The notes below the pieces were generated by a model, which did no database searches, had not been told where the DNA came from, and was given only the letters and a program-made list of their open reading frames with translations. A program made the translations under genes and the position numbers. 32,000 bases of DNA from Ktedonobacterales bacterium (GTDB taxonomy: Bacteria > Chloroflexota > Ktedonobacteria > Ktedonobacterales > JADMIN01): assembly GCA_030167145.1 (NCBI GenBank), contig CP126532.1, positions 2,400,001-2,432,000 on the forward strand. Direction: 5' to 3'. Below are positions 3,769-31,057 of the stretch, one piece after another. Every line of letters starts with the position of its first letter. Within the stretch, counting starts at the first letter, position 1.

Positions 3769-5247
3769 ATGTGGAGACGTGGACGTGCAGCGAAAACGGA
3801 ACGGATGGATGTACCGGATCTGGTGGAGGATGACATGGATGAGCAAACGACTGATGGCTTTGTGCGCGAGGACCTGGATGGCAAATCGCGCTCGCGTCTG
3901 TCGTTGCGTATGCCCCAGAGTATTGCTGGTATGTCCCCTGGTCGCAGGCGGATCCTCTATGCCGCGCTTGCGCTGCTGGTGGTGCTGATTTTCGTCTTCG
4001 TCTTCATTCTGCGCCAGCTCGCGCCCGCAGTCCACTACGCAACAGTCGCGCAAGGCAATCTGACCATCAGCTTTCCCGCTACGGGGACGCTGCAAAGCGC
4101 CGAGTACGATCCCAACTTCGCCATCACCGGGCAGGTAGCGGAGATAGATGTCACCGTGGGCGATACCGTCACGGCGGGGCAGACGCTCGCCAAGCTCAAC
4201 ACCACCCAGCTTCAGAATGCCGTCAACGCCGCACAGGCCGCCGTCAACGCCGCGCAAACCAAATTTGACGACGCCAACGCCTCGCTGAACAAAGTGCAGG
4301 CACAGACCGATGCCGCGCTCGCCGCCGCCTACGATGCGGAGCAGGCCAAGCTGAATAGCAGCAATTGCGATAGCGCATGTGTGCAGCAGGCGGAAGACCA
4401 GTACGCCGCCGCGCAGGCCCTGGCCGACGCCCAGAACGCCGCCGCGCAGACTGCCGTAGATGATGCGCAATCAGAGGTCAACACATCAAAGGCGCTGCTT
4501 CAGATCGCGCAGGGCAACCTTGCCGCCGCCACGCTCACCGCCCCACACGATGGCACCGTCGCCGCCATCTACGGCACGGTCGGCGGCGGTGCGGGCGGCA
4601 GCGCTGTGCCATTCATCAAGATCGTGGACCTGGGCGCGATGCAGATGCAGGCCAATGTCAGTGTCGCGCATGCGGGCGACGTAGCCAGGGGCCAGATCGC
4701 GCAGGTGACGGTTCCCGCCATCGGCAAGCAGATTTTCCAGGGGACCGTCACGAGTGTCTCGCCGCTTGGCACCGTGATCGGCAATACGCTCACCTATCCC
4801 GTGACGATTGACCTCGATACCGCCAACACCACGGGCGCGGCGCCGCTGCCCGGCATGGCGGCACAAGTGGCCATCGTCACCGCCCAGCGCTTTGCCGTGC
4901 TCCTCATTCCCGTCAGCGCCGTCACCTTCGCCCAGGCCGCAAGCGACCTCAAACACGGTGGTTTCCTCACTGCCAAGCAAGTGACCGCAGCCATGACGCA
5001 GGCGCGCAATATGCTGACCACGCTCGAAAACGAGCAAGGCGCAGACATCTCGCAGGACCAGCCCACGCCGTCCTATGTGTTGGAAAACGCCAATGGCAAG
5101 TGGGTGGTGAAGCCGGTGGTGCTTGGGTTGACGAACGGCAAATCTTATGAGGTGCTCGCGGGCTTGAAGGCGGGCGAGAAGATCGTCTCAGGCGAGGCGA
5201 ACAGTGGCCTGACCTTCCCCACGCCGACACCCGTCATTACACGCTAA
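3769..5247 (+). CDS. HlyD/membrane-fusion-protein family periplasmic adaptor
   Basis: GAGGAGG lies 8 nt upstream of ATG 3769. There is one TM anchor (ILYAALALLVVLIFVFVFIL), a long Ala/Gln/Asn-rich coiled-coil hairpin and an LTAPHDGTVAAI beta-barrel motif. The start could be a later in-frame Met. Confidence 0.8.
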   Translation: MWRRGRAAKTERMDVPDLVEDDMDEQTTDGFVREDLDGKSRSRLSLRMPQSIAGMSPGRRRILYAALALLVVLIFVFVFILRQLAPAVHYATVAQGNLTISFPATGTLQSAEYDPNFAITGQVAEIDVTVGDTVTAGQTLAKLNTTQLQNAVNAAQAAVNAAQTKFDDANASLNKVQAQTDAALAAAYDAEQAKLNSSNCDSACVQQAEDQYAAAQALADAQNAAAQTAVDDAQSEVNTSKALLQIAQGNLAAATLTAPHDGTVAAIYGTVGGGAGGSAVPFIKIVDLGAMQMQANVSVAHAGDVARGQIAQVTVPAIGKQIFQGTVTSVSPLGTVIGNTLTYPVTIDLDTANTTGAAPLPGMAAQVAIVTAQRFAVLLIPVSAVTFAQAASDLKHGGFLTAKQVTAAMTQARNMLTTLENEQGADISQDQPTPSYVLENANGKWVVKPVVLGLTNGKSYEVLAGLKAGEKIVSGEANSGLTFPTPTPVITR

Positions 5248-6545
5248 GCTTCGCTGACCGCTGGAAGCTCGCCATGACGCAGCAGCCATGCGCGCACCGG
5301 CGCGACGCCCTCGCGCACGAGCAGCGCCGCCGTGGGGGCGAGCCGCCGCTCAACCCAGTGCCGCGCCCTGGTGTCCGCAAGCAGCGCATCAAGCGTCTCG
5401 GCTGTTCTCGTGGTGACGATACGCGCATCGCGCGTCAGGCGCAGGCGCTCGACATGCCGCTCCCAGTCGTCCAGTGTCACGCGCACATTCGCGGGGAACA
5501 AGAAGCCCCCAGTGGGGGACCCCGGCACATCCGCCAGCGCGGTCAGCCGCCGCGCTACCTCATCGGCGTTCCAGCCGAGCGCACGGGCGCGGGCGAATGC
5601 GGGGCGGCTCAGGCGATAGCGGGCCGTCAACTCTATCGCGTCCTCGTCGGCGCAGGCATCGAGCAGCAGCAATTCTGGGGCGGTCAGCGGCGGATAGGCG
5701 ACCAGCGTGAAATCGGGCGAGAGCACCACGCGCCCTGTCGCTTCCGGCAGAGCCAGCGCCGCACCTTCGTCCTCCACCGCGCGTAACGCCTGGACCGCCA
5801 TGCCCGCGCGATAGACACTGGCGCGCAGGCCCTCAACCTGCGTCTCCTCCACTACGGCGAATCCCAGCCATGCCAGTGGCCCCAGCAGCGCCGCACGTTC
5901 GGTCGCGCCATCCATTGTGGTGTCGGCGCGTAACGGCACGCTGGCCGTGCGGCGGCGGACGCTCGTGCGTGTGCGGCGATCCGTGCTGGCGCGCGGCGCG
6001 AGAGGCAGCGCATGAATCGTATCCAGCGTCATCGCGGCCAGGGCATCCAGCAGACGGCGGCGAGCAAGGGCGATGCGGGGCGGGGCGGGCGTCATCAGCC
6101 GAGGCGGCTCGGCGCGTGGGTCGGGCGCATCGGGCCACCAACCGCCCGCCACCCAGAGCCGCACGCAGATACGCAGGCGCTCGGCCAGTGGATGCGCGAG
6201 ATAGCGCGCCATCTCACGCTGCTCCGCCGCGAGCAGCCGTGCATCGCCAGGAGCGGCGCGCAGCAGCCCGAGCCGTTGGAGCAACCGCCGCACGAAGAAC
6301 AGACGCGCATCCTCAGCTTCGGTCCGGTCGGCATCCACTGTGCCTGGGGCGCGCATGCCATCGGCGGCTAGCAGCCGCGCCCGCATCCGGCGCAACGCAG
6401 GACGTGTCACCAGTCCTCGCGCCGTCAGAGCCAGCCCGTCCGCTGCCCACGCCTCACGCCAATAAAGATAGAGGTCACGCTGAAACCGCACGGCTTCGGC
6501 TAGCCCCACCATAGCTTCGCTCCGCCACTCATCCGGCGTCGGCAT
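5244..6545 (-). CDS. Hypothetical protein with XPB-N-terminal-like (Helicase_C_3-like) module
   Basis: ATG 6545 lies 15 nt after the stop of the upstream SWIM gene, with GAGG in between, which suggests coupling. The C-terminal half (LSPDFTLVAYPP...ARYRLSRPAFARARALGWNADEVARRLTAL...NVRVTLDDWERHVERLRL) resembles the N-terminal damage-recognition module of bacterial XPB-type helicases; that match is from memory. No Walker A motif was seen. Confidence 0.75.
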   Translation of the reverse strand: MPTPDEWRSEAMVGLAEAVRFQRDLYLYWREAWAADGLALTARGLVTRPALRRMRARLLAADGMRAPGTVDADRTEAEDARLFFVRRLLQRLGLLRAAPGDARLLAAEQREMARYLAHPLAERLRICVRLWVAGGWWPDAPDPRAEPPRLMTPAPPRIALARRRLLDALAAMTLDTIHALPLAPRASTDRRTRTSVRRRTASVPLRADTTMDGATERAALLGPLAWLGFAVVEETQVEGLRASVYRAGMAVQALRAVEDEGAALALPEATGRVVLSPDFTLVAYPPLTAPELLLLDACADEDAIELTARYRLSRPAFARARALGWNADEVARRLTALADVPGSPTGGFLFPANVRVTLDDWERHVERLRLTRDARIVTTRTAETLDALLADTRARHWVERRLAPTAALLVREGVAPVRAWLLRHGELPAVSEA

Positions 6546-6560
6546 CAGCTTCGCCTCACT

Positions 6561-8951
6561 TCATACAGCGTAACCCCGACGCGCGAGCGCCGCTTCAAGT
6601 GCGGCGGCGGCATCCGGCGGCGCAAGCGCCAGCGCGGGGGCCAGCCGCTGGCAGCGTGCGGCAAGCTCTGGCACGGCGGCCAGCGCCTCGGCCAGGGCAA
6701 CATCATCGTGCGCTTCGATCAGCAGCCACCCCGCATACAGGTGGCTCTGCCCATACGCTTCTTGCCAGGCGCGCAGTCCTGTTTCGATGGCAGTGGCGGC
6801 GCGCTCACCGCCAGCCCGCAGGATGCGCGCAATCACGGCATCTGCTGACACGCCCGCATCGAATGCGGCGCAGGCCAGATCCGGCGCCAGGCGGTAGATC
6901 AGCCGCCCGCCCGCCACCGCCGCCGGACGCGCCCACATTTCCAGCGCATCGAGTGTCTCCGCGCCCAGCGCCAGCGGCGCAGCCGCCAGCGCACCGTCGC
7001 GCATCGCCAGCAGTGGCGCGCCCCACTCGCCCGCCAACGCATCACCAGCCCCGGACGGGAGCGCCGCCGTGTCAGTGGGGTCGAGCAGGAAGCGCCCGAA
7101 CGGCGTCACGCGGAACGCACCCGGCTGGCCTGCCGCATCCGCCGCGAGGTCCAGTGCGCCCCACCAGTGCAGCGGACCTGCCAGCAGCGCCCGCACATAC
7201 TCACCCTCGCTGGCGCGCCATTCCGCCGCGATGGAGGGTCGCAGCGGGCGACCCGCTTCGGAACGGCTCAGCGGGGCTACGCTCCGCCTGCCCGCTTCGG
7301 CGCGCTCCAGCCACCAGGCTGGTGAAGTGTAGGCCGCCTGCCGCCCGCGCAGAAACAGCGGCGCAATGCGCCAGATCAGATCGAGCAGCGCATCTATGCT
7401 ATACCACACGCCGGGTTGCGCCGTTGCGATCAGCCGGAGCACGAACTGCCGCGCCGCCTGGATTTCGCTGGCCAGCGCCGCCGGACGCAACTCGGTATGC
7501 GCCGCATCGAAGCCCACTCGCAGCGACGACCCCGGCTGGCTGAGGTCCGCTAGCTCAGCAGGTGACTCCGCCGCGCGCCACAGGCCAAACGCCGCGCGCA
7601 GGGTCAGTGGCCGCTCATCTGGCGGGGCGCCAGCGAGGTCACGCAGCGAATAATAGCTGGCGCCATCTTCGCGCGCCCAGAGCAACACGCGCCGCGCCAT
7701 CTGCGCCAGCCCCAGGGCCACGTCCGCACCACGCGCAAACTCCGTCAGCGGGGCGGTGGGCAGATCGCCAGGGACGAGCGGAAACGGGGCAGGCCCACAC
7801 GCTCCCTCGCGTGGCGGCTCGCGACGGTCTGAGGTGTCGCGCGGCGCGGCGCCAGCGAGTGGGTTGAATGGGCGCGGCGCGCGGGCTAGCAGCGCCAGCG
7901 CCAGGCAGAGCGGGCGCGGTGTGGCGCGCAACAGGCGCGTTGCCCGCGCGGCGGTGGACCCCTCCGCATGATCCGCTGAATCTAGTAGCGGCAACCCCTT
8001 GCCTGCTGCTAATGACGCGGGCGCGAGCGGCAACGTCAGCGGCAGCGCGGCGCGCACCTCAGGCGCAATCCGCCACCCCGCGACGCGACGCCACGCATGC
8101 TGTTCCTCGGTAGGCATAGGCGAAGGAGGGCGCACACCATGCGCCCCTACAGCGCCGGGCGCGGCGAAAAGCAGCGCGTGCCGTTCGAGCACGGCAACCT
8201 CGCTGCGCAGCGCGGCGGGCGCGCGGTGGGCGCGGGCGGCGATGCCATCCAGGTCAGCGGCGGTGAGACTGCCACCCAGCAGCGCAATTTCCATCAGCAG
8301 CGTGCGCGCGGCGGCGTCGAGCCGTTCGAGCACACGAACCAGATGCGCGCGCGCGCCGAGCGTCATCACCAGCAGCCGCCGTGCCTCATGTTCGTCGTGT
8401 TCACGCAGCTCACTGCCGAGCACACGGCGGGCGATTTCGGCGACATCGGCGGCGGGGAGCCGTGTCAGCTCATCCGCCAGCGTCGCGGGGCGGGGCGGCT
8501 GGCGCATGGCTCGCGCCTTCAGCAAAGTGGGCTGGGTGACCTGCGGCGGGGGCTGGGCGGGTAGCGAAAGGGAGGCTGGGGCGGATGCCTGGGTGGCCGA
8601 CGATCCGCTGGTGAGCGCGACGAAATCGCCAGGATGGCGAATCCACGCGGTGAGCAACGCTGCTACATGCGCGCACCCGAAGCGCGGTATCATCGCTGGC
8701 GCTTCGGTGGGTGGCGCGCAGTCGCAGTGCCAGCGCACATCCGCTGAGCCTTCATCGGTGGCTTCTGCTTCCACCTGATGCGCCGCGCCATCTTCCACTG
8801 TCGCGCGGAGGGTAGCGACCTCGCGGCAAGTCCCGGTCACGGCATGGCGCGAGACAAGTTCAATGCCGCGTGCGGCCGCCTGAAGCCCGCAGAAGCGGAC
8901 CACATCCGCTTCGCGCAGCTTCACCAGCGATGCGGGCGGCGACTGACTCAT
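6561..8951 (-). CDS. SWIM zinc-finger domain protein, 796 aa
   Basis: SWIM motif C76-x-C78-x14-C93-x-H95 (WHCDCAPP...FGCAHVAALL, about 8667-8726). GGAGG lies 7 nt upstream of ATG 8951. The C-terminal module LIYRLAPDLACAAFDAGVSADAVIARIL parallels one in the downstream gene. Confidence 0.85.
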   Translation of the reverse strand: MSQSPPASLVKLREADVVRFCGLQAAARGIELVSRHAVTGTCREVATLRATVEDGAAHQVEAEATDEGSADVRWHCDCAPPTEAPAMIPRFGCAHVAALLTAWIRHPGDFVALTSGSSATQASAPASLSLPAQPPPQVTQPTLLKARAMRQPPRPATLADELTRLPAADVAEIARRVLGSELREHDEHEARRLLVMTLGARAHLVRVLERLDAAARTLLMEIALLGGSLTAADLDGIAARAHRAPAALRSEVAVLERHALLFAAPGAVGAHGVRPPSPMPTEEQHAWRRVAGWRIAPEVRAALPLTLPLAPASLAAGKGLPLLDSADHAEGSTAARATRLLRATPRPLCLALALLARAPRPFNPLAGAAPRDTSDRREPPREGACGPAPFPLVPGDLPTAPLTEFARGADVALGLAQMARRVLLWAREDGASYYSLRDLAGAPPDERPLTLRAAFGLWRAAESPAELADLSQPGSSLRVGFDAAHTELRPAALASEIQAARQFVLRLIATAQPGVWYSIDALLDLIWRIAPLFLRGRQAAYTSPAWWLERAEAGRRSVAPLSRSEAGRPLRPSIAAEWRASEGEYVRALLAGPLHWWGALDLAADAAGQPGAFRVTPFGRFLLDPTDTAALPSGAGDALAGEWGAPLLAMRDGALAAAPLALGAETLDALEMWARPAAVAGGRLIYRLAPDLACAAFDAGVSADAVIARILRAGGERAATAIETGLRAWQEAYGQSHLYAGWLLIEAHDDVALAEALAAVPELAARCQRLAPALALAPPDAAAALEAALARRGYAV

Positions 8952-9003
8952 GCTCGCGCCTCCAACACGAGAGGACGAAACGAGAGACGCTGCTCAGCGA
9001 GCG

Positions 9004-9222
9004 TCACTCCTCCTCATCTTCGTCGTCGTCAAAGTCATCTTCAAACGCATCGTCCTCATCGTCTTCGTCATCATCCCAATCGTCGTCGTCAAAGTCGTCG
9101 AGATCGTCATCGAACTCGTCATCAACGTCAAGCTCCTCATCAAGTTCGTCTTCGTCAGGACCGGACGCGAGCGAGACCGGGATGCGCGGAAACAAGGGTG
9201 TTTCGGCTGTGGCGAGACTCAT
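9004..9222 (-). CDS. Hyper-acidic small protein, 72 aa
   Basis: ATG 9222-9220 has GGAGG 9 nt upstream and a TTGACC-18-TACAAT promoter further upstream. Product: MSLATAETPLFPRIPVSLASGP followed by 50 residues of which 40 are D or E, punctuated by L, V, F, W and A. It is the 3' end of the 347-aa track ORF, whose remainder overlaps the FHA gene out of frame. Confidence 0.6.
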   Translation of the reverse strand: MSLATAETPLFPRIPVSLASGPDEDELDEELDVDDEFDDDLDDFDDDDWDDDEDDEDDAFEDDFDDDEDEEE

Positions 9223-9309
9223 GAACAATAGCCTCCATGTGCTATAGATTTCTCGGCGATACGGTAATTGCGCGCATGCGAGCGGCGCGCCAGCCGGATG
9301 CTCCGGCAT

Positions 9310-9339
9310 ATTGTACGCACTGCACATGATGCAGGTCAA
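9310..9339 (-). promoter_or_regulatory. Sigma70-type promoter for the acidic-ORF/SWIM operon
   Basis: Minus strand: TTGACC (9339-9334), 18 nt spacer, TACAAT (9315-9310). It sits about 85 nt upstream of ATG 9222. The spacer contains TGCA-N5-TGCA dyad symmetry. Confidence 0.5.
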
Positions 9340-9394: not shown

Positions 9395-10327
9395 CTATGA
9401 GGTGGCCCGGCCGGGCTGCGCGCGACGGACCGATGAGGCGTTGGGCGTGTGGCAGCGCGGGCAGCGCTGCTGAATTGGCAGCAGGCTAAGTCGGCAATTA
9501 GGGCATTCCCGCGCGATGGGCTGATGGCAGTTCTGGCAATAGGCGGCGGCGGGATTGGTCCGCTGGCCGCAGGTCTGGCAGACGTGTAGCAGAATCGCGC
9601 CGGAGTCGCTTTCCGCAGGGGCGTGTGCGCCGCCCGCCGCCTCGCGCCGGTAGAGATCGTGTTCGAGATCGTCCAGATCGGATGCGGCGCGCGGAGCAGG
9701 GCCACTGGTGGGCGTGGAACGAAGCGCGGCTTCAGCCGCTTCCGCGAAGCCGGGCGCCGTGCGCAGCGCCTCGCGCACGGGCATGGTCGGCGGGGGCACG
9801 CGCGCTGCGGGAAACGATGACGCAGGCGGTGTAGAGGCGGCAGGCATCGCCGCCATTCCTGGCGGCACATAGGACGTTTCATCGCTGGAATAGGCGGAGC
9901 GCGGCGGCAACGGCGCCACCGAGGACGAAGGCACGAAGGCCCCAGCATTTCCCGCAGAGGAGCGCTGTGGCTGCTCCCAGCTTTCCAGCACCGCCGACAC
10001 CGCCGGAGCCAGCGCGCCAAGCGGTGACGCGGGTGGCGCAGCCTCATCTACGAATCGCAACGTGATGCCGGGCGCGAGCAGAATCTGGTCGCCGTGGACG
10101 AACGCACGCCGCTCGATGCGGTGGGCATCGAATACCAGGCCGTTGGTGCTGTGGAGATCAGCGATCCACCACTGGCCATTGTGATAGCGTAGCTCCGCGT
10201 GCTGGCGCGAGATCTGGCCGAAAGCCAGCACGATGTCGTTATATGCGAGGCGGCCAACCGTAAGACGCTCGCCCGCTAAACCCACGCGACGGCTGCCTTC
10301 AGGTGTCTCGATCTCCAGATAGGCCAT
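9395..10327 (-). CDS. FHA domain protein with C-terminal double zinc ribbon
   Basis: N-terminal FHA domain (LTVGRLAYNDIVLAFGQISRQHAELRYHNGQWWIADLHSTNGLVFD), a Pro/Ala-rich linker, then two C-x2-C-x10-C-x2-C ribbons (CQTCGQRTNPAAAYCQNC and CPNCRLSLLPIQQRCPRC). ATG 10327 (MAYLEIE) is preferred over the ORF opening at 10429. Confidence 0.85.
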   Translation of the reverse strand: MAYLEIETPEGSRRVGLAGERLTVGRLAYNDIVLAFGQISRQHAELRYHNGQWWIADLHSTNGLVFDAHRIERRAFVHGDQILLAPGITLRFVDEAAPPASPLGALAPAVSAVLESWEQPQRSSAGNAGAFVPSSSVAPLPPRSAYSSDETSYVPPGMAAMPAASTPPASSFPAARVPPPTMPVREALRTAPGFAEAAEAALRSTPTSGPAPRAASDLDDLEHDLYRREAAGGAHAPAESDSGAILLHVCQTCGQRTNPAAAYCQNCHQPIARECPNCRLSLLPIQQRCPRCHTPNASSVRRAQPGRATS

Positions 10328-10637
10328 ATGCGCCACTTCCGTTTCCCGCCGCGCCAAAGACGGCGGCGTAACCGATGGGTTTCTCGCCACATCGCCAGTA
10401 TAGCACTCGCCTGTCACAACGGGACACATCCAGCAGTACTATGGCAAAAATTGCGCGCGCACAAGCCCGCCCTTCACCAGGCGACTGACGCACGCCATGC
10501 GAACCTACAGCGCAGAGGGCAGCCGTGCGGCAGCACTTGCGCCCAGTGGTCATAGTCATGCATCATCTTCAGAGGAGAAAGCGGCACGTTATACGCCTCT
10601 CTGCACGCATGTACCGACAAGGAGCTTTCTGAGTATC

Positions 10638-13439: not shown

Positions 13440-14150
13440 ATGAGTCCAGAATTGCGTGAGCTACCGATCCGCGCGGTGGATTGCCTCAAGTATGTCTACA
13501 AGTTCCGCGAGCGCGGCGAGCGTATCTCCACCTCGGCGATGCGCGAGCGTTTGCAGGCGTTGGAGCCGACTGGGCAACTCAGCGACGCCACTGTGACCCA
13601 GCTTTTCAAGACGCTGGCCGAACGCGGCTATCTGCGCCACACCAAATACCACGGCGTGGAGTTGACCGCGCAGGGTGAGGCGGCGGCGGTAGAGATGGTG
13701 CGGCATCACCGGCTGATCGAACTGTATCTGGTGCGTGAGTTGGGCTACAGCCTGGACGAGGTGGACGCCGAGGCCGAGCGGCTGGAGCATGCCGTCTCCG
13801 CTACGTTTGTCGAGCGCATCGCCCGCAAGCTGGGCTACCCAACTGAAGATCCGCATGGCGACCCCATCCCCAGCAGCACCGGCGAGGTGGTGGCAACGCC
13901 CACGCAGCCGCTCTCCGAGTTAACGCCTGGCTTGCCCGCAGTGGTGCGCCGCGTCAGCGATGACAATGCGGCGCTGCTGCGCTACCTGGCGGCGCGCGGC
14001 CTGGTGCCGGGCGCGAATGTGCGCGTGCTCGACCGCGAGCCATTCGGTGGACCGCTGCGCGTGCATGTGGGCGACCCAGATGACGGCGCGGAGCATGCCG
14101 TCGGGCCGCAGGCGGCGGCAAGCGTCGGCGTGGTGCTGGCGGGCCGCTGA
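13440..14150 (+). CDS. mntR: DtxR/MntR family metal-dependent transcriptional repressor
   Basis: Winged-helix N-domain, a metal-site/dimerisation region ([10 protein letters not shown]...[10 protein letters not shown]...DPHGDPIP) and a C-terminal FeoA/SH3-like domain. It lies immediately upstream of an Nramp gene. Confidence 0.9.
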
Positions 14151-14187
14151 TGCACGCATCGTTCTTGAATAGTCCGTGGAGTGTATG

Positions 14188-14217
14188 GCGTGCGATAAAG
14201 AGGCGTGCGATAAAGAG
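14188..14217. repeat. Perfect 2 x 15-bp tandem duplication GCGTGCGATAAAGAG
   Basis: Read directly at 14188-14202 and 14203-14217, in the mntR-mntH spacer just upstream of the mntH start. Confidence 0.9.
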
Positions 14218-14239
14218 CTAGGTGGGAGTTGGCGAGTAC

Positions 14240-15583
14240 ATGGATATCACCGTCAAGCCGTCCGAGCGTGGCGATCAGCAGCGCCCCGGCGAGTATTCCG
14301 CTGATACAAAGCGGGGCAGTGTCGCGACGGTTGCCGCGGCGCGGGCTGTGCTGGCTGGCGACCGGCGCTTCAGCCTGAAGCGCGCGCTGCCATTCCTGGG
14401 GCCAGCGTTCATCGCCGCCGTGGCCTATATTGATCCCGGCAACTTCGCCACCAATATCCAGGCCGGCTCGCAGTTCGGCTATCTGCTGCTCTGGGTGATC
14501 CTCGCCAGCAATCTGATGGCGGTGCTGCTGCAAACACTCTCAGCGAAGCTGGGCATCGCCACTGGGCGCAATCTGCCCGAACTCTGCCGCCGCCACCTGC
14601 CTCGGCCAGTAAGCATGGGCCTGTGGGTTGTCGCGGAGATTGGCGCGATGGCCACCGATCTCGCCGAATTTCTGGGCGCGGCGGTCGGCTTCAATCTGCT
14701 GCTGCATGTGCCGCTCTTTCTTGCCGGTCTCCTCACCGCCGTCGCCACCTTCGGCATCCTGGCGCTGCAGCGGTTCGGCTTCCGCCCGCTGGAGGCGCTG
14801 ATTACCGTGCTGGTCGGCGTCATCGCAGGCGCATATCTCATCGAACTTTTCATTGCCAAGCCACATGGTGGCCAGATCGCATATCATCTCTTCGTTCCTG
14901 GGCTGGCTGGCCCGGAGAGCGTGCTGCTGGCGGTAGGCATCCTGGGCGCAACGGTGATGCCGCACGTGGTCTATCTGCACTCGGCGCTGACACAGAATCG
15001 TGTGCGTCCGCGCAACGCGGGTGAGGCGCGGGCCATCTTCCGCTTCGAGCGCTTCGACATCTGGCTCGCGATGGGGCTGGCGGGTATCGTCAACGGCGCA
15101 ATGCTAATTATGGCGGCGTCGGTCTTCTTCAGCAGCGGCCACACTGGCGTCTCCTCCATCGAAACAGCGTTCCAGACGCTGACCCCGCTCGCGGGGAACG
15201 GGGCGGCGGCGCTCTTCGGCGTCGCGCTGCTGGCTTCGGGCCTCTCGTCCTCGGCGGTGGGCACGCTGGCGGGGCAGGTCATCATGGAAGGATTCACCGG
15301 CTGGCGCATCCCGCTCTGGATCCGGCGGGCCATCACCATGCTGCCCGCGCTGGTGGTGATCGCGTTGGGGATGGACCCAACGCGCACGCTAGTGCTGAGC
15401 CAGGTGGCGCTGAGCTTCGTGCTGCCGTTCGCCATCATTCCGCTGCTCTACTTCACGGGCCGCCGCGACATCATGCGCGGGCTGGTGAACCACCGCGTGA
15501 CGCGCATCCTGGGCTGGGGCGTCGCCGCGATCATCATCGCGCTCAACCTCGTGCTGCTGTATAGCACGTTCACGGGCTTGTAG
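14240..15583 (+). CDS. mntH: Nramp family divalent metal (Mn2+/Fe2+) transporter
   Basis: Nramp signature DPGNFATNIQAGSQFGYLLLW and many hydrophobic TM segments throughout. I chose ATG 14240; the in-frame GTG at 14222 is an alternative start. Confidence 0.92.
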   Translation: MDITVKPSERGDQQRPGEYSADTKRGSVATVAAARAVLAGDRRFSLKRALPFLGPAFIAAVAYIDPGNFATNIQAGSQFGYLLLWVILASNLMAVLLQTLSAKLGIATGRNLPELCRRHLPRPVSMGLWVVAEIGAMATDLAEFLGAAVGFNLLLHVPLFLAGLLTAVATFGILALQRFGFRPLEALITVLVGVIAGAYLIELFIAKPHGGQIAYHLFVPGLAGPESVLLAVGILGATVMPHVVYLHSALTQNRVRPRNAGEARAIFRFERFDIWLAMGLAGIVNGAMLIMAASVFFSSGHTGVSSIETAFQTLTPLAGNGAAALFGVALLASGLSSSAVGTLAGQVIMEGFTGWRIPLWIRRAITMLPALVVIALGMDPTRTLVLSQVALSFVLPFAIIPLLYFTGRRDIMRGLVNHRVTRILGWGVAAIIIALNLVLLYSTFTGL

Positions 15584-20189: not shown

Positions 20190-21434
20190 TTACGCCACGC
20201 GCTTCGTGCGTACAGGAATCTGTACGGGGTGAACTGCTGCACCCGCTATCCCCTTGCCTTGAAAGGCATCAGGGAGTACTTTGCGAATGGTGTTGTAGGA
20301 GCCGTTCACATCTGCGTTGATGTGCCGCCCATCCGCCGCTCGATACAGCCCACGCCGCACCCGCCGACCGCTGAAGGAAGGCGCAGACCGCGTGGCGTCC
20401 CGTGTGGCATCATAGATGGGCAAGGGGTCCGCATCAAGGAAGCTAGCCTTGCTGGTGTAGCTCTCCTCAGTGAGGCGTACCTGAATACCGACCAACTCCC
20501 CTTTGTAGGTGAGCATGTCAATGAAGCGCGCATGGGGAACGGCAACAAAGTTTTGATTGTTGCGCTTCCCCAGGTTGGCTTGCTGCTTCCAAAGTGGGTT
20601 CTTGCCGATGCACAGCGTCCCGATGCCCTCGGCCACCAGCAGATCAATGATGCGCCGACTGGCGGTGTGCAGGTAATGATCGATCTGCCGCGTTCGATGG
20701 GCCGTGAGCCTCTCCATCTGGCGCGTGGTACCAGTCGTGCCCAGCTTCTTTTGCAACTCCGCTCTGCGCTTGTTATAGAACTGGTTGATCGACTTCACGG
20801 GGCGCCCGTTAACGATGCGCGGAACAAAGCCCGCTTTGTTTGAGGTTAGCGCCGCGAGATTGTTGAGACCAATGTCTATCCCAGCGTAGAGCGATGGGTT
20901 GACCGCTGTGGGGACCGGCTCGCGCTCGTAGACGACTTCCATGACGTAGTAGCCCTTGCGGGGCACAATCCGCGCCTGCTTGACCATGGTTTGTCTGGTC
21001 GGAACACGGATGCCCAACTGCGATGGAATGACCTCACAGCGCCGTAGCCCGGTTGAGCTGATGGCTTGAATATCGTAGGTCAGCAGATTGCGGCCCTTCT
21101 GCTTGTCTTTGTAGCCCGGCAGCCGGGGCCGCCCGACAAACTTCGACGCGTCCGCTTTCCAGGCGTCCAGATCGGCAAAGAAGGCCCGCCAGTCGTGATC
21201 GAGTTGGCGCAGCACGTCATTGCTCACCTTACGCGGCAGGGCGCAGTAGGCTTCGTGGTCCTTGATGCGGTGGAAGACGGCCGCAAAGTTGAGGTAGACG
21301 CCCTCATGGATAAAGGACTGCCGTACGATGTAGTTGGCCGCGTTGTAGAGGTTCTTGGAGGCAAATGCGGCACGGTCGATGGCGGCAAAGCGCGGGTCGG
21401 TGACGCGGATGACGTGCTGTTCAACGAGTTGCAT
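20190..21434 (-). CDS. tnpB: TnpB-type RNA-guided endonuclease (IS200/IS605-IS607 accessory protein)
   Basis: N-terminus MQLVEQHVIRVTDPRFAAIDRAAFASKNLYNAANYIVRQ is typical of a TnpB subfamily. RuvC motifs are present: YAGIDIGLNN (D), RLTEESYTSK (E) and HINADVNGSYNTIRK (D). The segment between RuvC-II and RuvC-III has no cysteines (FSGRRVRRGLYRAADGR). The start overlaps the stop of the tnpA remnant by 14 nt. Confidence 0.92.
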   Translation of the reverse strand: MQLVEQHVIRVTDPRFAAIDRAAFASKNLYNAANYIVRQSFIHEGVYLNFAAVFHRIKDHEAYCALPRKVSNDVLRQLDHDWRAFFADLDAWKADASKFVGRPRLPGYKDKQKGRNLLTYDIQAISSTGLRRCEVIPSQLGIRVPTRQTMVKQARIVPRKGYYVMEVVYEREPVPTAVNPSLYAGIDIGLNNLAALTSNKAGFVPRIVNGRPVKSINQFYNKRRAELQKKLGTTGTTRQMERLTAHRTRQIDHYLHTASRRIIDLLVAEGIGTLCIGKNPLWKQQANLGKRNNQNFVAVPHARFIDMLTYKGELVGIQVRLTEESYTSKASFLDADPLPIYDATRDATRSAPSFSGRRVRRGLYRAADGRHINADVNGSYNTIRKVLPDAFQGKGIAGAAVHPVQIPVRTKRVA

Positions 21435-21600
21435 CGCCTGTGGCCTCCTCTCCGCGTAACTCAGCCGCAATGCGCTCCGTCTTGCGCTTTGCTCGGCGCT
21501 GGCCGTAGAGTCGAGCCGTGAACGAATAGACAATCGCCGCCAAATCGGCGATCAAGTTCTCTTTGTCGTTCTCGGCCAGATTCACGACCTCGGTGGTCAG
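21421..21600 (-). pseudogene. tnpA: Truncated IS607-type serine-recombinase transposase (C-terminal ~59 codons only)
   Basis: EVVNLAENDKENLIADLAAIVYSFTARLYGQRRAKRK aligns, from memory, with the C-terminus of IS607 TnpA (...EIIVINQ...ELVEDLISIIHVFSCRLYGLRKYKK). The upstream part of the ORF has no resolvase or HTH features, so the catalytic-Ser N-terminal domain is missing. Confidence 0.7.
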
Positions 21601-27505: not shown

Positions 27506-28741
27506 CTACTGCAATTGGCGGCGGCACGTGGCGCAGAAGCGCTGGGTCGGCGCATTGCGCGCGCCGCAGATCGGACAGATGATCGCCAGCGGCTGACGAC
27601 AATTCGTGCAGAAGCGATTGCCCTGCGCGTTCGGCGCGCCGCAGGCGGGGCAGCGCACCCAGCTTGCGGTGTGCTGCTGATAGGGGCCTTGCGACGCAGG
27701 CGGGGCTGGTTGAAGCGGGCGCAACGCCAGCCCACAGGCAGAGCAGAAGTTTTGGTGCGGGGCGTTGGGATGGTGGCAGCGCGGGCAGACCAGCGCCCCC
27801 AGCGGCGCGGATGGCACTGAGCGGCGCGGCGCGCCTGTCGGCAGTGGCTGCGCGCCGGGTGTGGGCGCGGCGGTTTGCCTGCCCACGGCGGCGCTGGGCA
27901 TCGGCGCCTGAGCCGCCACGGCCTGCTCCAGCGCGATGGCAAGCTCGGTCGCCTTCTGGAAGCGTTCGGCGGGATTCTTCTCCAGCGCCTTGAGGATCAC
28001 CGCCTGTACTGCTGGCGAGATGTGCGGGTTGAGTTGTGAGGGCGGCGGCGCTGGCTCATAGATGTGCGAGTGAGCGAGGGCGGTATAGTTGTCGGCGATG
28101 AATGGCGTGCGCCCGGTGAGCATCTCGTAGAGCATCACGCCAAGGGCGTAGATGTCGCTGCGATAGTCCACGCCGACGCCACGGCATTGCTCCGGCGACA
28201 TGTATTCGGGCGTGCCAACGCCCGCGCCGTCGCGGGTGAGCGCGGCGGAGGTGGCCAGTACTTTAGCAATGCCGAAGTCGCTCAGCACGGCGCGCCCACC
28301 GAGGTCCATCAGCACGTTGACGGGCTTCACGTCGCGGTGAACGATGCCCATGGAGTGCGCATAGGTGAGCGCGCCCGCAATCTCGTTGACGATGCGCACA
28401 ATGTCGCGCAGCGGCATCTTGGCGAGCATGCGCTGCTTCAAGTTGCCGCCTCCGACATACTCCATGGTGATGAAGAGGCGCCCGTTCTCTTCGCCCGCGA
28501 AGTAGACCGCGACGATATTCGGGTGCGAGAGCCGCGCCATCGCCCGCGCCTCCAGCTTGAAGCGTTCGACAAAGGCCTCATCGGCGGCATAGTAGGGCGG
28601 CAGCACCTTGACGGCGACATCGCGCTCAAGGTTCGCTTGCTTGGCACGGTAGACCCGCGCCATCCCTCCCTGGCCCAGGAGTTCTTCGATGACGCAATCT
28701 CCCAGAGTCGCGCCGATTAGCTCGTCATCCACGCGATTCAC
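27506..28741 (-). CDS. Ser/Thr protein kinase with three C-terminal zinc ribbons
   Basis: Hanks kinase motifs GQGGMARVY, VAVKVL, HRDVKPVN, DFGIAK and GTPEYMSPE. The C-terminus has three C-x2-C-x10-C-x2-C ribbons (CPRCHHPNAPHQNFCSAC, CPACGAPNAQGNRFCTNC, CPICGARNAPTQRFCATC). GTG start at 28741. Confidence 0.9.
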   Translation of the reverse strand: MNRVDDELIGATLGDCVIEELLGQGGMARVYRAKQANLERDVAVKVLPPYYAADEAFVERFKLEARAMARLSHPNIVAVYFAGEENGRLFITMEYVGGGNLKQRMLAKMPLRDIVRIVNEIAGALTYAHSMGIVHRDVKPVNVLMDLGGRAVLSDFGIAKVLATSAALTRDGAGVGTPEYMSPEQCRGVGVDYRSDIYALGVMLYEMLTGRTPFIADNYTALAHSHIYEPAPPPSQLNPHISPAVQAVILKALEKNPAERFQKATELAIALEQAVAAQAPMPSAAVGRQTAAPTPGAQPLPTGAPRRSVPSAPLGALVCPRCHHPNAPHQNFCSACGLALRPLQPAPPASQGPYQQHTASWVRCPACGAPNAQGNRFCTNCRQPLAIICPICGARNAPTQRFCATCRRQLQ

Positions 28742-28778: not shown

Positions 28779-29861
28779 CTAGCGGCGCGTAAACTTCAGC
28801 ACCGTCTGGCCGACCTGCACCTCGTCGCCTTCATCGAGCATCTTTTCGTTGACACGCTGCCCGTTGACGTAGGTGCCATTGGCGCTGCCCTCATCGCGCA
28901 GCAGATAGCGCCCGTCCATTTCGCGATTGATGCTGGTGTGCAGGCGCGAGACGGCCAAATCTTCTAAGAAAATGTCGCTCTCGCGGCTGCGTCCGATGGT
29001 GATGCGATCTTTGCGTAGCTCATAGGGGCGCCCCTGCTCTTTGCCTTCCTGCACCACCAGCACATAGGAGCGCTGCGGCGTATCTGGGCGGGCGCTGCGT
29101 GTCCGCTCCATATCCGCGTAGGCTGCGCCCGCGCCACCAGCCGCACCCCACTGCTGCGCACCCTGCTGCGCGCCCCAATCCTGTCCCATGGTGGGTTGTT
29201 GCGCGCCGCCCATGCCCCAGCCGCCTGCGCCACCTGTTTGCGCGCCTGCCCATTCGGGTTGTGCGGCACCTTGCTGGCCGCCCCAGCCCTGCGCTCCACC
29301 CTGATCCCACGGCGCAGGTGTGCCCTGCGATGGCATCCCAGCGTGTGCGTCCCATGCGGGCTGGCCCGCACCGGCAGCCGGGTTCATGCCCCACGCGCCC
29401 TGGCCGCTCGATTGATTGCCCCAGGCGCCCTGCTGGCCGCCGGTTGCGTAGTCCTGACCCCAGCCAGCGGCAGCGGCTTGCTGGCTGCCCCATTGCGCCT
29501 GCGAGTTCGGCCCCGCCGCGCCGCGTGGGTCGGCGTAGTCTTGCCCCCAACCCGCGCCAGAGCCACCACGCGCGCCAGACATCTGGCCCGCCGCGCCATA
29601 ATCGTAACCACCGGAGGCGGGGCCGCCCTGGCGCTGCCATGCGCCATCAGCCTCGTTGCGCGGCTGGCCGATAGGGCCAACCTGTGCATCGTAGCCCAGC
29701 CCGCTCGATGCTTTGCGACCCGCGCTGTTGCTACGCAGCACCATCACAAAGACCAGCACGATTGTCAGCACGACCACCAGCGCTGCGGCGGCGACCGCCA
29801 CATTGCTGCTCAGCCCGCCGTCACCAAGGACGACCAGCCAGGTCTGCGCGAATGTCATCAT
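28779..29861 (-). CDS. Membrane-anchored FHA domain protein with Trp/Gly/Gln-rich disordered linker
   Basis: N-terminal TM segment (VAVAAAALVVVLTIVLVFVMVL), about 200 aa of low complexity with 13 Trp, and a canonical C-terminal FHA domain (ITIGRSRESDIFLEDLAVSRLHTSINREMDGRYLLRDEGSANGTYVNG). GGGGAAGGAA SD. Confidence 0.85.
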   Translation of the reverse strand: MMTFAQTWLVVLGDGGLSSNVAVAAAALVVVLTIVLVFVMVLRSNSAGRKASSGLGYDAQVGPIGQPRNEADGAWQRQGGPASGGYDYGAAGQMSGARGGSGAGWGQDYADPRGAAGPNSQAQWGSQQAAAAGWGQDYATGGQQGAWGNQSSGQGAWGMNPAAGAGQPAWDAHAGMPSQGTPAPWDQGGAQGWGGQQGAAQPEWAGAQTGGAGGWGMGGAQQPTMGQDWGAQQGAQQWGAAGGAGAAYADMERTRSARPDTPQRSYVLVVQEGKEQGRPYELRKDRITIGRSRESDIFLEDLAVSRLHTSINREMDGRYLLRDEGSANGTYVNGQRVNEKMLDEGDEVQVGQTVLKFTRR

Positions 29862-29884: not shown

Positions 29885-31057
29885 TTAACGCGGGCGAATT
29901 TCAAAGCGAAGCTCGATATTGCCCAGCCGCAGCGCATCACCGGAGTGCAACTCCAGTTCTTGATGCGGTGCAAGTTGCACATTGTTGACGCGCGTCGGAT
30001 TGAAGGCGTTCATATCTTCGATATAGAAGCTGCCACCACGGCGGGTGATGCGCGCGTGGCGGCGCGAAACAGTCTGTGCGGGGTCCAGCGGCAGCAGATC
30101 CACATCGGGATGCACCCCGCGCTGTGGGTCGCTGCGACCAATAATCATATCGGGCGCGCTCAGCGTAAACGACGCGCCACCACCCGCTGGCTGCAGCGTC
30201 GCCAGCGGCTCCAGCGGGCGCGATACGCCCGTCTGGCGCACTGGCAGCCCGGCAAGCGCCTCAGTAAAGGCGAGCGGTGTCTGAAAGCGATCTTCGCGCG
30301 ACTTGGCCAGTGCTTTCTGGAAGAAATCATCGAACTCCGGTGGCAACTCTGGGCGCAGGCTCCGGGCCGACGGGATCGGGCCATTCAGGTGTTGCATTAC
30401 TACGTCCCAAGCATGCTCTCCGTCAAACGGCACCCGGCCCGTCAATAGCTCGAAGAAGACGCAGGCCAGCGAATACAGATCGGCGCGCACATCGGCGCGG
30501 CGGCTGTTCTCCACCTGCTCCGGCGAGACGTAGTATGGCGTGCCGACAAAGAAGCCAGTAACGGTGATGTCGGCGGATTCATTGCTGCGGGCGAGGCCAA
30601 AATCGGCGAGTTTGACCGTGCCATTCACGCTCAGCAGCAGATTCTGCGGCTTGATGTCGCGATGCACGATGCCGCGCTCAGCCGCCGCCGCGACCCCCGC
30701 CGTCGCCTGCTCGGCCACGTCAATCGCGCGTGCGGGCAGGAACGCGCCGCCCGTGAGCACCGCATGCTTGAGATTGTGGCCGTCCACGTAATCCATGACG
30801 ATGAAAAGCCCGCCACCTTTATCTTCGCCGAAGTCCACCGGACTGACGATATGTGGCCCAGAGAGGCGCGTGAGCAACTCGAACTCGCGCTTGAAGCGCT
30901 CGACCAGCTCACTATCCGCAGACGCCTGTTTGCTCAGCACTTTGACAGCATACAGTCGGTTTGTTTCCAGATCACGACCGATGTAGACAGTGGCCATGCT
31001 GCCATTGCCGCGCTCATCAATGAGCTTGAAACGATTTTTTAGCACCCGCCCAAGCAT
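29885..31057 (-). CDS. Ser/Thr protein kinase fused to a C-terminal FHA domain
   Basis: Kinase motifs YAVKVL, HRDIKPQN, DFGLAR and GTPYYVSPE. C-terminal FHA domain: MIIGRSDPQRGVHPDVDLLPLDPAQTVSRRHARITRRGGSFYIEDMNAFNPTRVNN. Confidence 0.9.
   Translation of the reverse strand: MLGRVLKNRFKLIDERGNGSMATVYIGRDLETNRLYAVKVLSKQASADSELVERFKREFELLTRLSGPHIVSPVDFGEDKGGGLFIVMDYVDGHNLKHAVLTGGAFLPARAIDVAEQATAGVAAAAERGIVHRDIKPQNLLLSVNGTVKLADFGLARSNESADITVTGFFVGTPYYVSPEQVENSRRADVRADLYSLACVFFELLTGRVPFDGEHAWDVVMQHLNGPIPSARSLRPELPPEFDDFFQKALAKSREDRFQTPLAFTEALAGLPVRQTGVSRPLEPLATLQPAGGGASFTLSAPDMIIGRSDPQRGVHPDVDLLPLDPAQTVSRRHARITRRGGSFYIEDMNAFNPTRVNNVQLAPHQELELHSGDALRLGNIELRFEIRPR

Follow-up and report, generated by a model that had tools for sequence, protein, structure and literature searches.

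Two p52/Tfb2-like proteins and a hyper-acidic mini-protein in a Ktedonobacterales operon: most likely a motor-less module of the bacterial XPB repair system

Introduction

In TFIIH, the subunit p52/Tfb2 (GTF2H4) is the holder and regulator of XPB, the DNA-repair motor. Its 'clutch', which is a Helicase_C_3 domain homologous to the N-terminal domain of XPB, forms a pseudo-symmetric dimer with that domain, and its C-terminal domain forms a second dimer with p8 (PMC6422496), while the p52/p8 pair has an activating as well as a limiting effect on the XPB ATPase (PMC7708078). According to the published view, bacteria possess no homologs of the other TFIIH subunits (PMC3353954), and our literature search found no paper on bacterial p52 homologs or on the protein family considered here.

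Bacterial XPB, defined here by the combination of Helicase_C_3, ResIII, ERCC3_RAD25_C and Helicase_C, is encoded together with proteins annotated as 'helicase-associated domain-containing' (PF13625). In Spirochaetia and others the XPB gene is followed by one p52-like protein of 560-885 aa, mostly about 700-760, and in Chloroflexota by a SWIM/p52-like protein and then a long p52-like one; this wider XPB and p52-like module is also uncharacterised in the literature that we searched. In archaea, the accessory protein Bax1 is encoded beside XPB and modulates the XPB ATPase (PMC7293015, PMC13024598). SWIM proteins of SF2/SNF2 helicases (PF04434) carry a CxCxnCxH motif after a small beta-sheet. Among the DNA mimics of phages there are small, hyper-acidic proteins. 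An operon of a Ktedonobacterales bacterium is described below and compared with these systems.

Organisation of the operon

The operon is found on the minus strand of the window (the whole stretch of 32 kb that was analysed) and is composed of three tightly spaced genes, separated by 52 nt and then 15 nt. Together with its upstream neighbour it has the following features.

9395 to 10429, minus strand: FHA and double-zinc-ribbon protein, 344 aa (Pfam FHA E 2e-15, DZR E 6.6e-6)
9310 to 9339, minus strand: predicted sigma-70-like promoter, TTGACC-18-TACAAT, ahead of the gene for the acidic protein (sequence reading and consensus scan)
9004 to 9222, minus strand: hyper-acidic mini-protein, 72 aa (open reading frame, composition, positional equivalents, alignment)
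8986 to 9005, minus strand: weak stem-loop directly 3' of the acidic-gene stop, with a 6-bp stem and a T-poor tail
6561 to 8951, minus strand: protein A, SWIM and p52/Tfb2-like, 796 aa (AlphaFold2 model, Foldseek, collinearity with the XPB-operon SWIM protein)
8622 to 8951, minus strand: SWIM-type zinc-finger domain of A, aa 1-110 (CDC-x14-CAH, aa 76-95)
6675 to 6980, minus strand: probable Helicase_C_3 or 'clutch' domain of A, aa 658-759 (Pfam below cut-off, hhalign to the family of the 433-aa protein)
6579 to 6725, minus strand: beta-alpha-beta-beta-alpha C-terminal domain of A, aa 743-791 (secondary structure of the model)
5244 to 6545, minus strand: protein B, p52/Tfb2-like short form, 433 aa (AlphaFold2 model, Foldseek, profile searches)
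5340 to 5726, minus strand: Helicase_C_3 or 'clutch' domain of B, aa 274-402 (Pfam PF13625)

Most of this layout had been outlined in a sequence-only reading of the same DNA, and it holds: the coordinates and both gaps of the three same-strand genes stand, the expected Shine-Dalgarno sites are represented by a GGAGG upstream of the first two start codons (the 72-aa and 796-aa genes), and the promoter scan recovers TTGACC-18-TACAAT at 9339-9310 with 10 of 12 consensus matches, being one of two promoter-like sites in the 5.8-kb region where 0.4 is expected from shuffles. Judged from its sequence, the stem-loop may be a partial terminator or attenuator between the first and second genes. Searches of Pfam, NCBIfam and PADLOC found no catalytic domain in the operon proteins, in agreement with the earlier statement that neither large protein contains a motor or a nuclease. 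Conservation of the gene set, raised in the same reading, is borne out by the relatives: the SWIM gene adjoins a gene of the 433-aa type in almost all of them, and an acidic open reading frame stands ahead of the pair in 27 fetched loci of about 12 distinct lineages (L001, L002 and 24 more loci have an equivalent in this place), so the set is not a product of chance.

Homology of both large proteins to p52/Tfb2

Protein B, which contains 63 Arg and no Lys (pI 10.3), gave an AlphaFold2 model with a pLDDT of 86. All of its top 18 Foldseek hits are TFIIH p52/Tfb2 (345-421 aligned columns, best E 1.2e-8), followed in the list by XPB N-terminal domains, and its family profile also matches p52 best in the PDB (E 0.055-0.08). 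Its Helicase_C_3 domain matches PF13625 over profile positions 2-124 of 125 with 38.0 bits (E 1.9e-9; gathering cut-off 34.2), PF13625 also matches all 29 members of the protein B family, and in the AlphaFold model the protein ends in a Tfb2C/Tfb5-like beta-alpha-beta-beta-alpha unit. Taken with the model, the best explanation is that B is a minimal p52-like protein made of a winged-helix region, a Helicase_C_3 clutch and a Tfb2C/Tfb5-like C-terminal domain.

Protein A (pLDDT 83.8) starts with a beta-sheet and the SWIM finger (about aa 1-110), continues through a disordered linker (116-151) into a helical, winged-helix-like middle, and ends in a half that is paralogous to the 433-aa protein. 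Its top 14 Foldseek hits are p52/Tfb2 chains, the best being 8ebs_D with a near full-length match (E 4.8e-6). Its PF13625 score of 23.4 bits (E 6.4e-5) is below the cut-off, and 14 of the 35 members of its family match (best E 1.5e-8). According to the model, its C-terminal domain has a fold resembling Tfb2 C-terminal/Tfb5 (p8), and Foldseek likens it weakly to 3dom and 3dgp (target TM about 0.6, E 6-10), which is not significant alone. We found 75 homologs of A; nearly all of those that bear a taxon name belong to Ktedonobacterales.

The paralogy of A and B is supported by profile-profile comparison (hhalign probability 97.3%, E 2e-11), which aligns residues 430-775 of A with 107-411 of B over about 300 columns; the module common to both proteins, seen earlier by eye, is thus real and larger than had been noticed. 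The accompanying comparison with Helicase_C_3 was right for B, to whose family A, itself below the Pfam cut-off, is tied by profile comparison, but it understated the likeness, which extends to nearly the whole of p52/Tfb2, the best Foldseek match of both models. In TFIIH this module is a protein-protein clutch and is not established as a domain for damage recognition; the archaeal DRD is described as unrelated in structure (PMC3353954).

The homology of A and B with TFIIH p52/Tfb2, which covers nearly all of that subunit, is in our view solid. The profile of the long relatives of B, a family linked to the B of the window with E down to about 1e-65, matches residues 286-451 of human p52 (E 2.8e-5) and human XPB's N-terminal domain (E 1.6e-7). 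Pfam Tfb2 (PF03849, cut-off 34.5 bits) leaves the window proteins unmatched at E <= 1 and matches 4 of the 29 B family members (best E 3.8e-4), its cut-off being passed only in more distant long-form relatives, P0230 (42.5 bits) and P0245 (38.5 bits). A and B keep the p52 order of winged-helix region, clutch and C-terminal dimerisation domain, although at a sequence identity of only 12-15%, and TM-scores to p52 are low, about 0.3, which flexible multi-domain chains lead one to expect, so that we make no claim of a rigid-body match. Unlike TFIIH with its one p52, the locus encodes two paralogs, one of them with a SWIM finger, and a hyper-acidic partner, and it contains no homolog of p8/Tfb5, p34, p44, p62 or XPB.

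The SWIM motif read from the sequence, C-x-C-x14-C-x-H, is present as CDC-x14-CAH at residues 76-95. Among 35 homologs of A the ligands Cys1, Cys3 and His are kept with few exceptions or none; about 60% have Cys as the second ligand, and the others have His or Asp one residue further on. The N-terminus of ZSWIM8 matches this part of A structurally (Foldseek probability 0.95, E 0.64), and an association with a helicase, XPB, is found in relatives of A, as in known SWIM proteins. The clade of A differs from these by the 14-residue loop, the variable second ligand and sub-threshold Pfam scores (PF04434 gives no hit for the A of the window and weak ones for 8 of 35 homologs, best E 0.018), and by fusion of the finger to a p52-like body rather than to a helicase or MuDR transposase. 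In the XPB-linked relatives the motif is canonical, CxCx7-9CxH.

Relation to bacterial XPB operons

The relatives of A and B that are encoded beside XPB recall the functional pair of p52 and XPB. In loci L004 and L007 the XPB gene is followed by a SWIM protein and a p52-like protein with gaps of -4 to +4 nt, the order XPB, A-like, B-like is found at 10 Chloroflexota genome loci, and a p52-like open reading frame lies just downstream of XPB in 58 of the 74 evaluable bacterial XPB loci. BLAST aligns protein A collinearly, at both ends, with the L004 SWIM protein (E 7e-16 and 6e-14) and places B on residues 198-626 of the XPB-linked 787-aa protein from the same locus (E 2e-19), B missing about 190 N-terminal residues and the C-terminal second Helicase_C_3 copy of the long form. 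The near-abutting A-then-B order is common to both types of operon. What differs is that in the Ktedonobacterales version XPB is unlinked, the second protein is shortened, and there is an additional acidic mini-protein, often together with an FHA gene.

The triad, taken to be new and self-contained in the sequence-only reading, derives from a widespread bacterial operon of XPB and a p52-like protein, and the enzymatic partner which that reading placed elsewhere is therefore most likely XPB. As the A/B pair stands directly behind XPB in related bacteria, we regard the operon as most probably a regulatory module, lacking a motor of its own, in the little-studied bacterial XPB repair system. The HMM search found no XPB gene in the window and none in about 50 triad-type loci with flanks of up to 10 kb, and Pfam found no helicase among the other genes of the window. 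A scan of reference genomes for XPB recovered no Ktedonobacterales; it used two short peptide patterns only, and so gives no evidence of an absence of XPB from the order.

The hyper-acidic protein and the FHA neighbour

The share of Asp and Glu in the 72-aa protein, estimated earlier at about 55%, is 57% by count (41 of 72 residues), and the net charge is -40. A short Thr-containing N-terminal segment is followed by an L-x-x-G-P hinge and an acidic tail of about 50 aa; the alignment of the equivalents shows that the GP hinge and the Trp/Phe anchor positions of the tail are conserved. The protein has no match in Pfam, NCBIfam or PADLOC; its composition makes it a putative DNA mimic. It is clade-specific, belonging to the Ktedonobacterales version of the module, and is missing in about 7 lineages, hence not essential to the A/B pair. 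In about 10 of the roughly 17 lineages left after dereplication an FHA gene is the immediate upstream neighbour, and its product is a possible, unproven accessory component of the module.

Discussion

From the observed homology, paralogy, synteny and conservation we infer a p52-like heterodimer, itself non-catalytic, which works for a DNA-repair translocase whose gene lies elsewhere and has an acidic charge-mimic regulator, and we give this reading an even chance of being right. The A/B pair would descend from an operon of XPB, A and B that is intact in other Chloroflexota; in the Ktedonobacterales clade the pair would have been split from XPB, B would have lost its second XPB-N-terminal-like copy and the acidic gene would have been added in front. 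A and B may bind each other by way of the clutch and C-terminal domains in which they are homologous, in parallel to the XPB-NTD/p52-clutch and p52-CTD/p8 contacts of TFIIH, and the heterodimer may clamp and tune an SF2 double-strand DNA translocase, most likely XPB, in DNA repair, with the SWIM finger and helical regions providing contacts to DNA or to a partner. The repair context is supported by XPB-unlinked relatives of the pair, which lie beside Ogt and RecO or beside a UvrA-like gene. Such a function would resemble that of Bax1, which in contrast is a nuclease bound to the thumb and HD2 of XPB, A and B being nuclease-free and of p52-like fold. The acidic protein may put its Trp/Phe anchors and negative charge on a basic surface (such as that of B, by its pI), acting as a competitor or chaperone that mimics DNA and prevents the module from binding DNA before it is needed, possibly under a control exerted through the Thr motif at its N-terminus and the FHA protein encoded next to it.

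It is possible, though we give it clearly less credence, that the pair works without XPB as a lone scaffold or sensor that binds DNA structure or damage, with the acidic protein replacing the lost partner (XPB or DNA) and a signalling input through the FHA protein. The window and all triad loci are free of XPB, the acidic gene directly upstream of A occupies the slot of XPB in L004 and L007, the FHA gene recurs upstream, and XPB-unlinked A/B relatives have Ogt and RecO, or a UvrA-like gene, as repair neighbours; with the XPB-NTD-like C-terminal copy of B lost, the connection to XPB could have been abandoned. However, neither A nor B carries a catalytic domain or a known effector domain, holding and regulating XPB is the one role characterised for their fold (PMC6422496, PMC7708078), partners can be encoded by unlinked genes, and the clutch and C-terminal domains are retained and strongly conserved.

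A bolder and rather unlikely suggestion is that bacteria have a TFIIH-core-like XPB/p52 machine of which the Ktedonobacterales triad is an XPB-independent, acidic-gated offshoot. The two p52-like paralogs alone would form a pseudo-symmetric dimer through clutch/clutch and CTD/CTD contacts, and a phospho-regulated mini-protein, read by the FHA protein and mimicking DNA, would gate their access to DNA. If true, it would be a new kind of non-enzymatic sensor of DNA damage or DNA structure and a living model of the ancestral XPB-NTD/p52/p8 assembly, and it would contradict the published absence of other TFIIH subunits from bacteria (PMC3353954).

Quite improbable is a role in transcription, with or without XPB, in which the module would open or remodel promoter DNA or act on RNA polymerase, and the acidic protein would be a ligand of the acidic activation-domain type. 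The acidic tail has spaced Trp/Phe/Leu residues, which we take to resemble the acidic-hydrophobic motifs that bind TFIIH, and eukaryotic p52 and XPB work in promoter opening (PMC6422496). Against it, the related pairs adjoin repair genes (Ogt, RecO, UvrA-like) and not transcription genes, homologs of p62 and other TFIIH core subunits are absent, and the genes nearby include none for RNA polymerase or a sigma factor.

We see very little prospect for an anti-phage defence or mobile-element function, with an anti-restriction-like acidic DNA mimic and a SWIM nucleic-acid sensor: beyond the resemblance of the small protein to phage mimics and a weak match of the SWIM N-terminus of the L004 relative to the PADLOC candidate PDC-S62 (E 6e-8), the four proteins of the window have no match in PADLOC-DB 2.0 at E <= 0.01, and the flanks are housekeeping genes, differing between relatives, and contain neither an integrase nor a defence island. 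One such cluster is present in each of the approximately 50 fetched triad loci, and all sequences in which the triad type was seen are Ktedonobacterales-like, their members being 40-55% identical, a pattern that resembles vertical inheritance. It is just as hard to believe that the acidic frame is no gene and only a GA-rich stretch read in frame, in spite of its low complexity, its lack of a database family and its patchy occurrence, as it has a Shine-Dalgarno site and a promoter-like site of its own, is alike in place, orientation and length (67-90 aa) across about 12 lineages, and conserves the GP hinge and the Trp/Phe anchor positions though its large neighbour is only 40-50% identical.

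Homology of A and B to the TFIIH subunit p52

Homologs of p52/Tfb2, the TFIIH subunit that holds and regulates the XPB motor, are widespread in bacteria and usually encoded directly after XPB, and we see this bacterial module as more interesting than the triad itself. The triad (an acidic 72-aa protein, the 796-aa protein A and the 433-aa protein B) combines two p52-like proteins, one of them fused to a SWIM finger, with an acidic partner, and has no linked XPB. Its genes and putative signals are as follows (positions within the window).

5244-6545, minus strand: ORF, B gene, 433 aa
6561-8951, minus strand: ORF, A gene, 796 aa, GGAGG before the start
8986-9005, minus strand: stem-loop GACGCTCGCTGAGCAGCGTC, beginning at the acidic-gene stop codon; only weakly terminator-like, its tail poor in T
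9004-9222, minus strand: ORF, acidic gene, 72 aa, GGAGG before the start
9339-9310, minus strand: promoter-like site TTGACC-18-TACAAT, consensus score 10/12

The intergenic gaps are 52 nt (acidic gene to A) and 15 nt (A to B), and promoter-like sites number two in the 5.8-kb region against 0.4 expected from shuffles. Everything that the sequence-only reading had described of this operon, namely the promoter-like site, the three minus-strand ORFs, the gaps, the SD sites and the SWIM motif, was found. The stem-loop might set the ratio of the acidic protein to A and B. A is identical to the deposited hypothetical protein OJF49_002291 (5.07-Mb contig), and B contains 63 Arg and no Lys (pI 10.3). 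The B gene converges with an HlyD-like membrane-fusion gene on the plus strand (3769-5247); the two share 4 nt at their 3' ends (5244-5247), and an intergenic terminator therefore has no space there.

The two large proteins had been suggested to share a module resembling Helicase_C_3 (PF13625), the domain that forms the clutch of p52. The Pfam search agrees with this, placing the domain at residues 274-402 of B, above the cut-off, and at residues 658-759 of A, below it; moreover, the A and B families are paralogous across about 300 columns, and so beyond the module (hhalign probability 97.3%, E 2e-11). AlphaFold2 models built from the family alignments were confident (pLDDT 86 for B and 84 for A) and were compared with the PDB by Foldseek. 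Hits 1-18 of the B model were all TFIIH p52/Tfb2 chains (345-421 columns, E down to 1.2e-8), followed by XPB N-terminal domains, and p52 also led the hits of the A model (E 4.8e-6). The last 60 or so residues of A gave weak matches to the Tfb2C/Tfb5 dimer, and its SWIM part resembled the ZSWIM8 N-terminus (Foldseek probability 0.95). TM-scores to p52 were low, about 0.3 for B and 0.13-0.24 for A, as expected for flexible, multi-domain chains.

On the level of sequence profiles, the best matches of the 433-aa family among PDB sequences were p52 (E 0.055-0.08), and the profile of the 796-aa family found nothing there even at E <= 10, so that the p52 likeness is seen only through structure comparison and through the profiles of the 433-aa family and of its longer relatives. 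Pfam Tfb2 matches 4 of the 29 members of the 433-aa family; formal membership was found for distant relatives and not for A and B themselves. In the profile of the wider bacterial family, the first Helicase_C_3 copy matches human p52 residues 286-451 (E 2.8e-5) and the second the human XPB N-terminal domain (E 1.6e-7). The likeness to p52, the XPB N-terminal domain and p8 (Tfb5) is one of fold and domain-level logic. B is a minimal p52-like protein, A is a SWIM finger with a helical region and a C-terminal p52-like half, and in these homology assignments we have high confidence. The finger itself (CDC-x14-CAH, residues 76-95 of A) keeps Cys1, Cys3 and His across 35 homologs, with Cys, His or Asp as the second ligand, a conservation that fits a retained metal site.

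Linkage of the p52-like family to XPB

Close homologs number 75 for A and 239 for B, and those with names are nearly all from Ktedonobacterales. With a limit of E <= 1e-3, the B profile reached 5,016 representative clusters in an exhaustive HMMER search, and beyond the forms of about 430 aa there were many proteins of 750-800 aa (long B), in which the entire B profile maps to residues ~180-610. These hold two Helicase_C_3 stretches, and some surpass the Pfam Tfb2 cut-off. It is the gene neighbourhoods of the long-B relatives that identify the partner as XPB, an SF2 translocase, in the following operons.

L004, 3857-10364: XPB, SWIM protein, long p52-like protein
L007, 4089-9833: XPB, SWIM protein, long p52-like protein

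In both the gaps are -4 to +4 nt, the SWIM protein has 796 or 718 aa, and XPB carries Helicase_C_3, ResIII, ERCC3_RAD25_C and Helicase_C domains. A of the window runs collinear with the SWIM protein of L004, and B aligns to residues 198-626 of the 787-aa protein of the same locus.

A scan of reference genomes with two strict XPB peptide patterns returned 80 loci (L009-L088), from Anaerolineae, Chloroflexia, Spirochaetia and others, and none from Ktedonobacterales. A p52-like ORF lies just downstream of XPB in 58 of the 74 evaluable loci. In ten Chloroflexota loci the A and B HMMs gave the order XPB, A-like, B-like, and in the majority of Spirochaetia (and other) loci a single p52-like protein of 560-885 aa, mostly 700-760, comes after XPB. 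The single p52/Tfb2-like protein, on the same strand as XPB, was seen in Spirochaetia, Desulfobacterota-like and other bacteria; in Chloroflexota there are two, a SWIM/p52-like protein and then a long p52-like one with two Helicase_C_3 copies. Among more distant relatives from the B-profile search, P0230 (1346 aa) has an N-terminal Rho_N/SAP (HeH) DNA-binding motif and P0320 (925 aa) a C-terminal WYL domain, which hints at more architectural variety in the bacterial family.

The pair is also found unlinked to XPB. One Ktedonobacteraceae-like lineage has the order Sir2, Ogt (O6-alkylguanine transferase), A-like with SWIM, long B, RecO, and in another lineage a SWIM/p52-like and long p52-like pair lies directly before a UvrA-like ABC gene. 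Loci with the Ogt/RecO or UvrA-like context are these.

L138, 807-7850, and L139
L003, 10483-13461
L006, 10208-12631

The Ogt, RecO and UvrA-like neighbours point to DNA repair.

According to one paper, no bacterial homologs of other TFIIH subunits were identified, and XPB in bacteria probably works with no complex of the TFIIH type (PMC3353954); in a 2026 review, archaeal Bax1 is the sole prokaryotic partner given for XPB, and none from bacteria is listed (PMC13024598). In the literature collection that we searched there was no description of bacterial p52 homologs or of a bacterial module of XPB and a p52-like protein. Database annotations ('helicase-associated domain-containing protein', 'XPB/Ssl2-like') mean that the domain was recognised and not interpreted. 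The wide occurrence of p52-like genes behind XPB suggests that the XPB-p52 clutch is an ancient pairing, open to study in prokaryotes.

Clusters of the window type and the acidic protein

The window-type clusters compared were L001 and L002, looked up directly, and 49 further loci from metagenomes. Conservation of the triad, proposed earlier as a check, holds for A and B, since a B-like gene directly follows A wherever sequence is available (exceptions are L098, L101/102 and L106), and holds in part for the acidic ORF, which immediately precedes A in 27 loci, from about 12 lineages after dereplication, and is absent in about seven lineages. Of 17 lineages, about 10 have an FHA gene immediately upstream, and the flanking genes otherwise vary. 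One lineage has a SAM-methyltransferase-like gene in the acidic-gene position, with the FHA gene on one side of it and the SWIM/p52-like gene on the other (L090 4230-5381, L091 2348-3496, L111 2288-3439). A co-occurring helicase was likewise proposed as a check, and XPB was found neither in the window-type loci nor in the 32-kb window.

The acidic protein has 41 Asp/Glu among its 72 residues, slightly above the 55% first estimated, and a net charge of -40. Its relatives (67-90 aa) share a short N-terminal segment containing a Thr, the hinge L-x-x-G-P and an acidic tail in which Trp/Phe positions are conserved, and these features argue that the ORF encodes a real, clade-specific protein and not random low complexity. 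Its origin as a piece split off from XPB-linked proteins is not supported, as in the linked operons no stretch of XPB, A or B exceeds 27% D/E per 30 residues.

Possible mechanism

Within TFIIH, the clutch of p52 dimerises pseudo-symmetrically with its homolog, the N-terminal domain of XPB, and p8 binds the C-terminal domain of p52, whose fold it shares (PMC6422496); p52 and p8 activate and cap the XPB ATPase (PMC7708078). A and B each have a clutch and, at the C-terminus, a Tfb2C/Tfb5-like unit, and the most economical model would be an A/B heterodimer formed through the same two types of interface, clutch to clutch and C-terminal unit to C-terminal unit. Considering the descent of A and B from XPB-operon genes, their likeliest job would be to hold and tune an XPB-type translocase, encoded elsewhere, in DNA repair. 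The acidic protein, whose polyanionic tail bears aromatic anchors, would plausibly lie over the basic surface that the complex presents and act there as a DNA-like competitor or chaperone, and its conserved N-terminal Thr together with the frequent FHA neighbour suggests that it may be under phospho-dependent control. For this mechanism as a whole we see about an even chance.

The main rival, a pair that no longer depends on XPB, would agree with the loss from B of the second, XPB-NTD-like copy and with the position of the acidic gene, which occupies the place of XPB in the linked operons. A defence-island reading we rate low. Searches of NCBIfam and PADLOC assigned none of the three proteins to a family or to a defence system. 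The sequence-only interpretation is supported in part. A spurious acidic ORF is rated low as well.

The window version is a natural experiment on a minimised pair uncoupled from XPB, and it adds a SWIM-p52 fusion and a conserved, hyper-acidic partner with a possible role in regulating DNA binding. Should A and B pair in the pseudo-symmetric way that is predicted, they would be a simple system for studying the evolution of p52-type regulators and the control of SF2 translocases.

Other genes of the window

Scans of the window for Rfam families and tRNAs found nothing; the remainder of the window consists of housekeeping genes, and no helicase or nuclease was found in it. A TnpB-like ORF (20190-21533, minus strand, 447 aa; OrfB_IS605 and a Cas12f1-like TNB domain), with no Rfam RNA found nearby, marks an IS200/IS605-type element or remnant. 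At 13440-15583 (plus strand) a DtxR/MntR-type metal repressor (Fe_dep_repr and FeoA) adjoins an Nramp transporter, an ordinary Mn/Fe uptake pair where Rfam found no yybP-ykoY or other riboswitch. Signalling genes are the following.

9395-10429, minus strand: FHA and double-zinc-ribbon protein, upstream neighbour of the triad
27506-28741, minus strand: Ser/Thr kinase with zinc ribbons
28779-29861, minus strand: FHA protein
29885-31057, minus strand: kinase-FHA fusion

Conceivably, phospho-signalling links these FHA proteins and kinases to the Thr motif at the N-terminus of the acidic protein.
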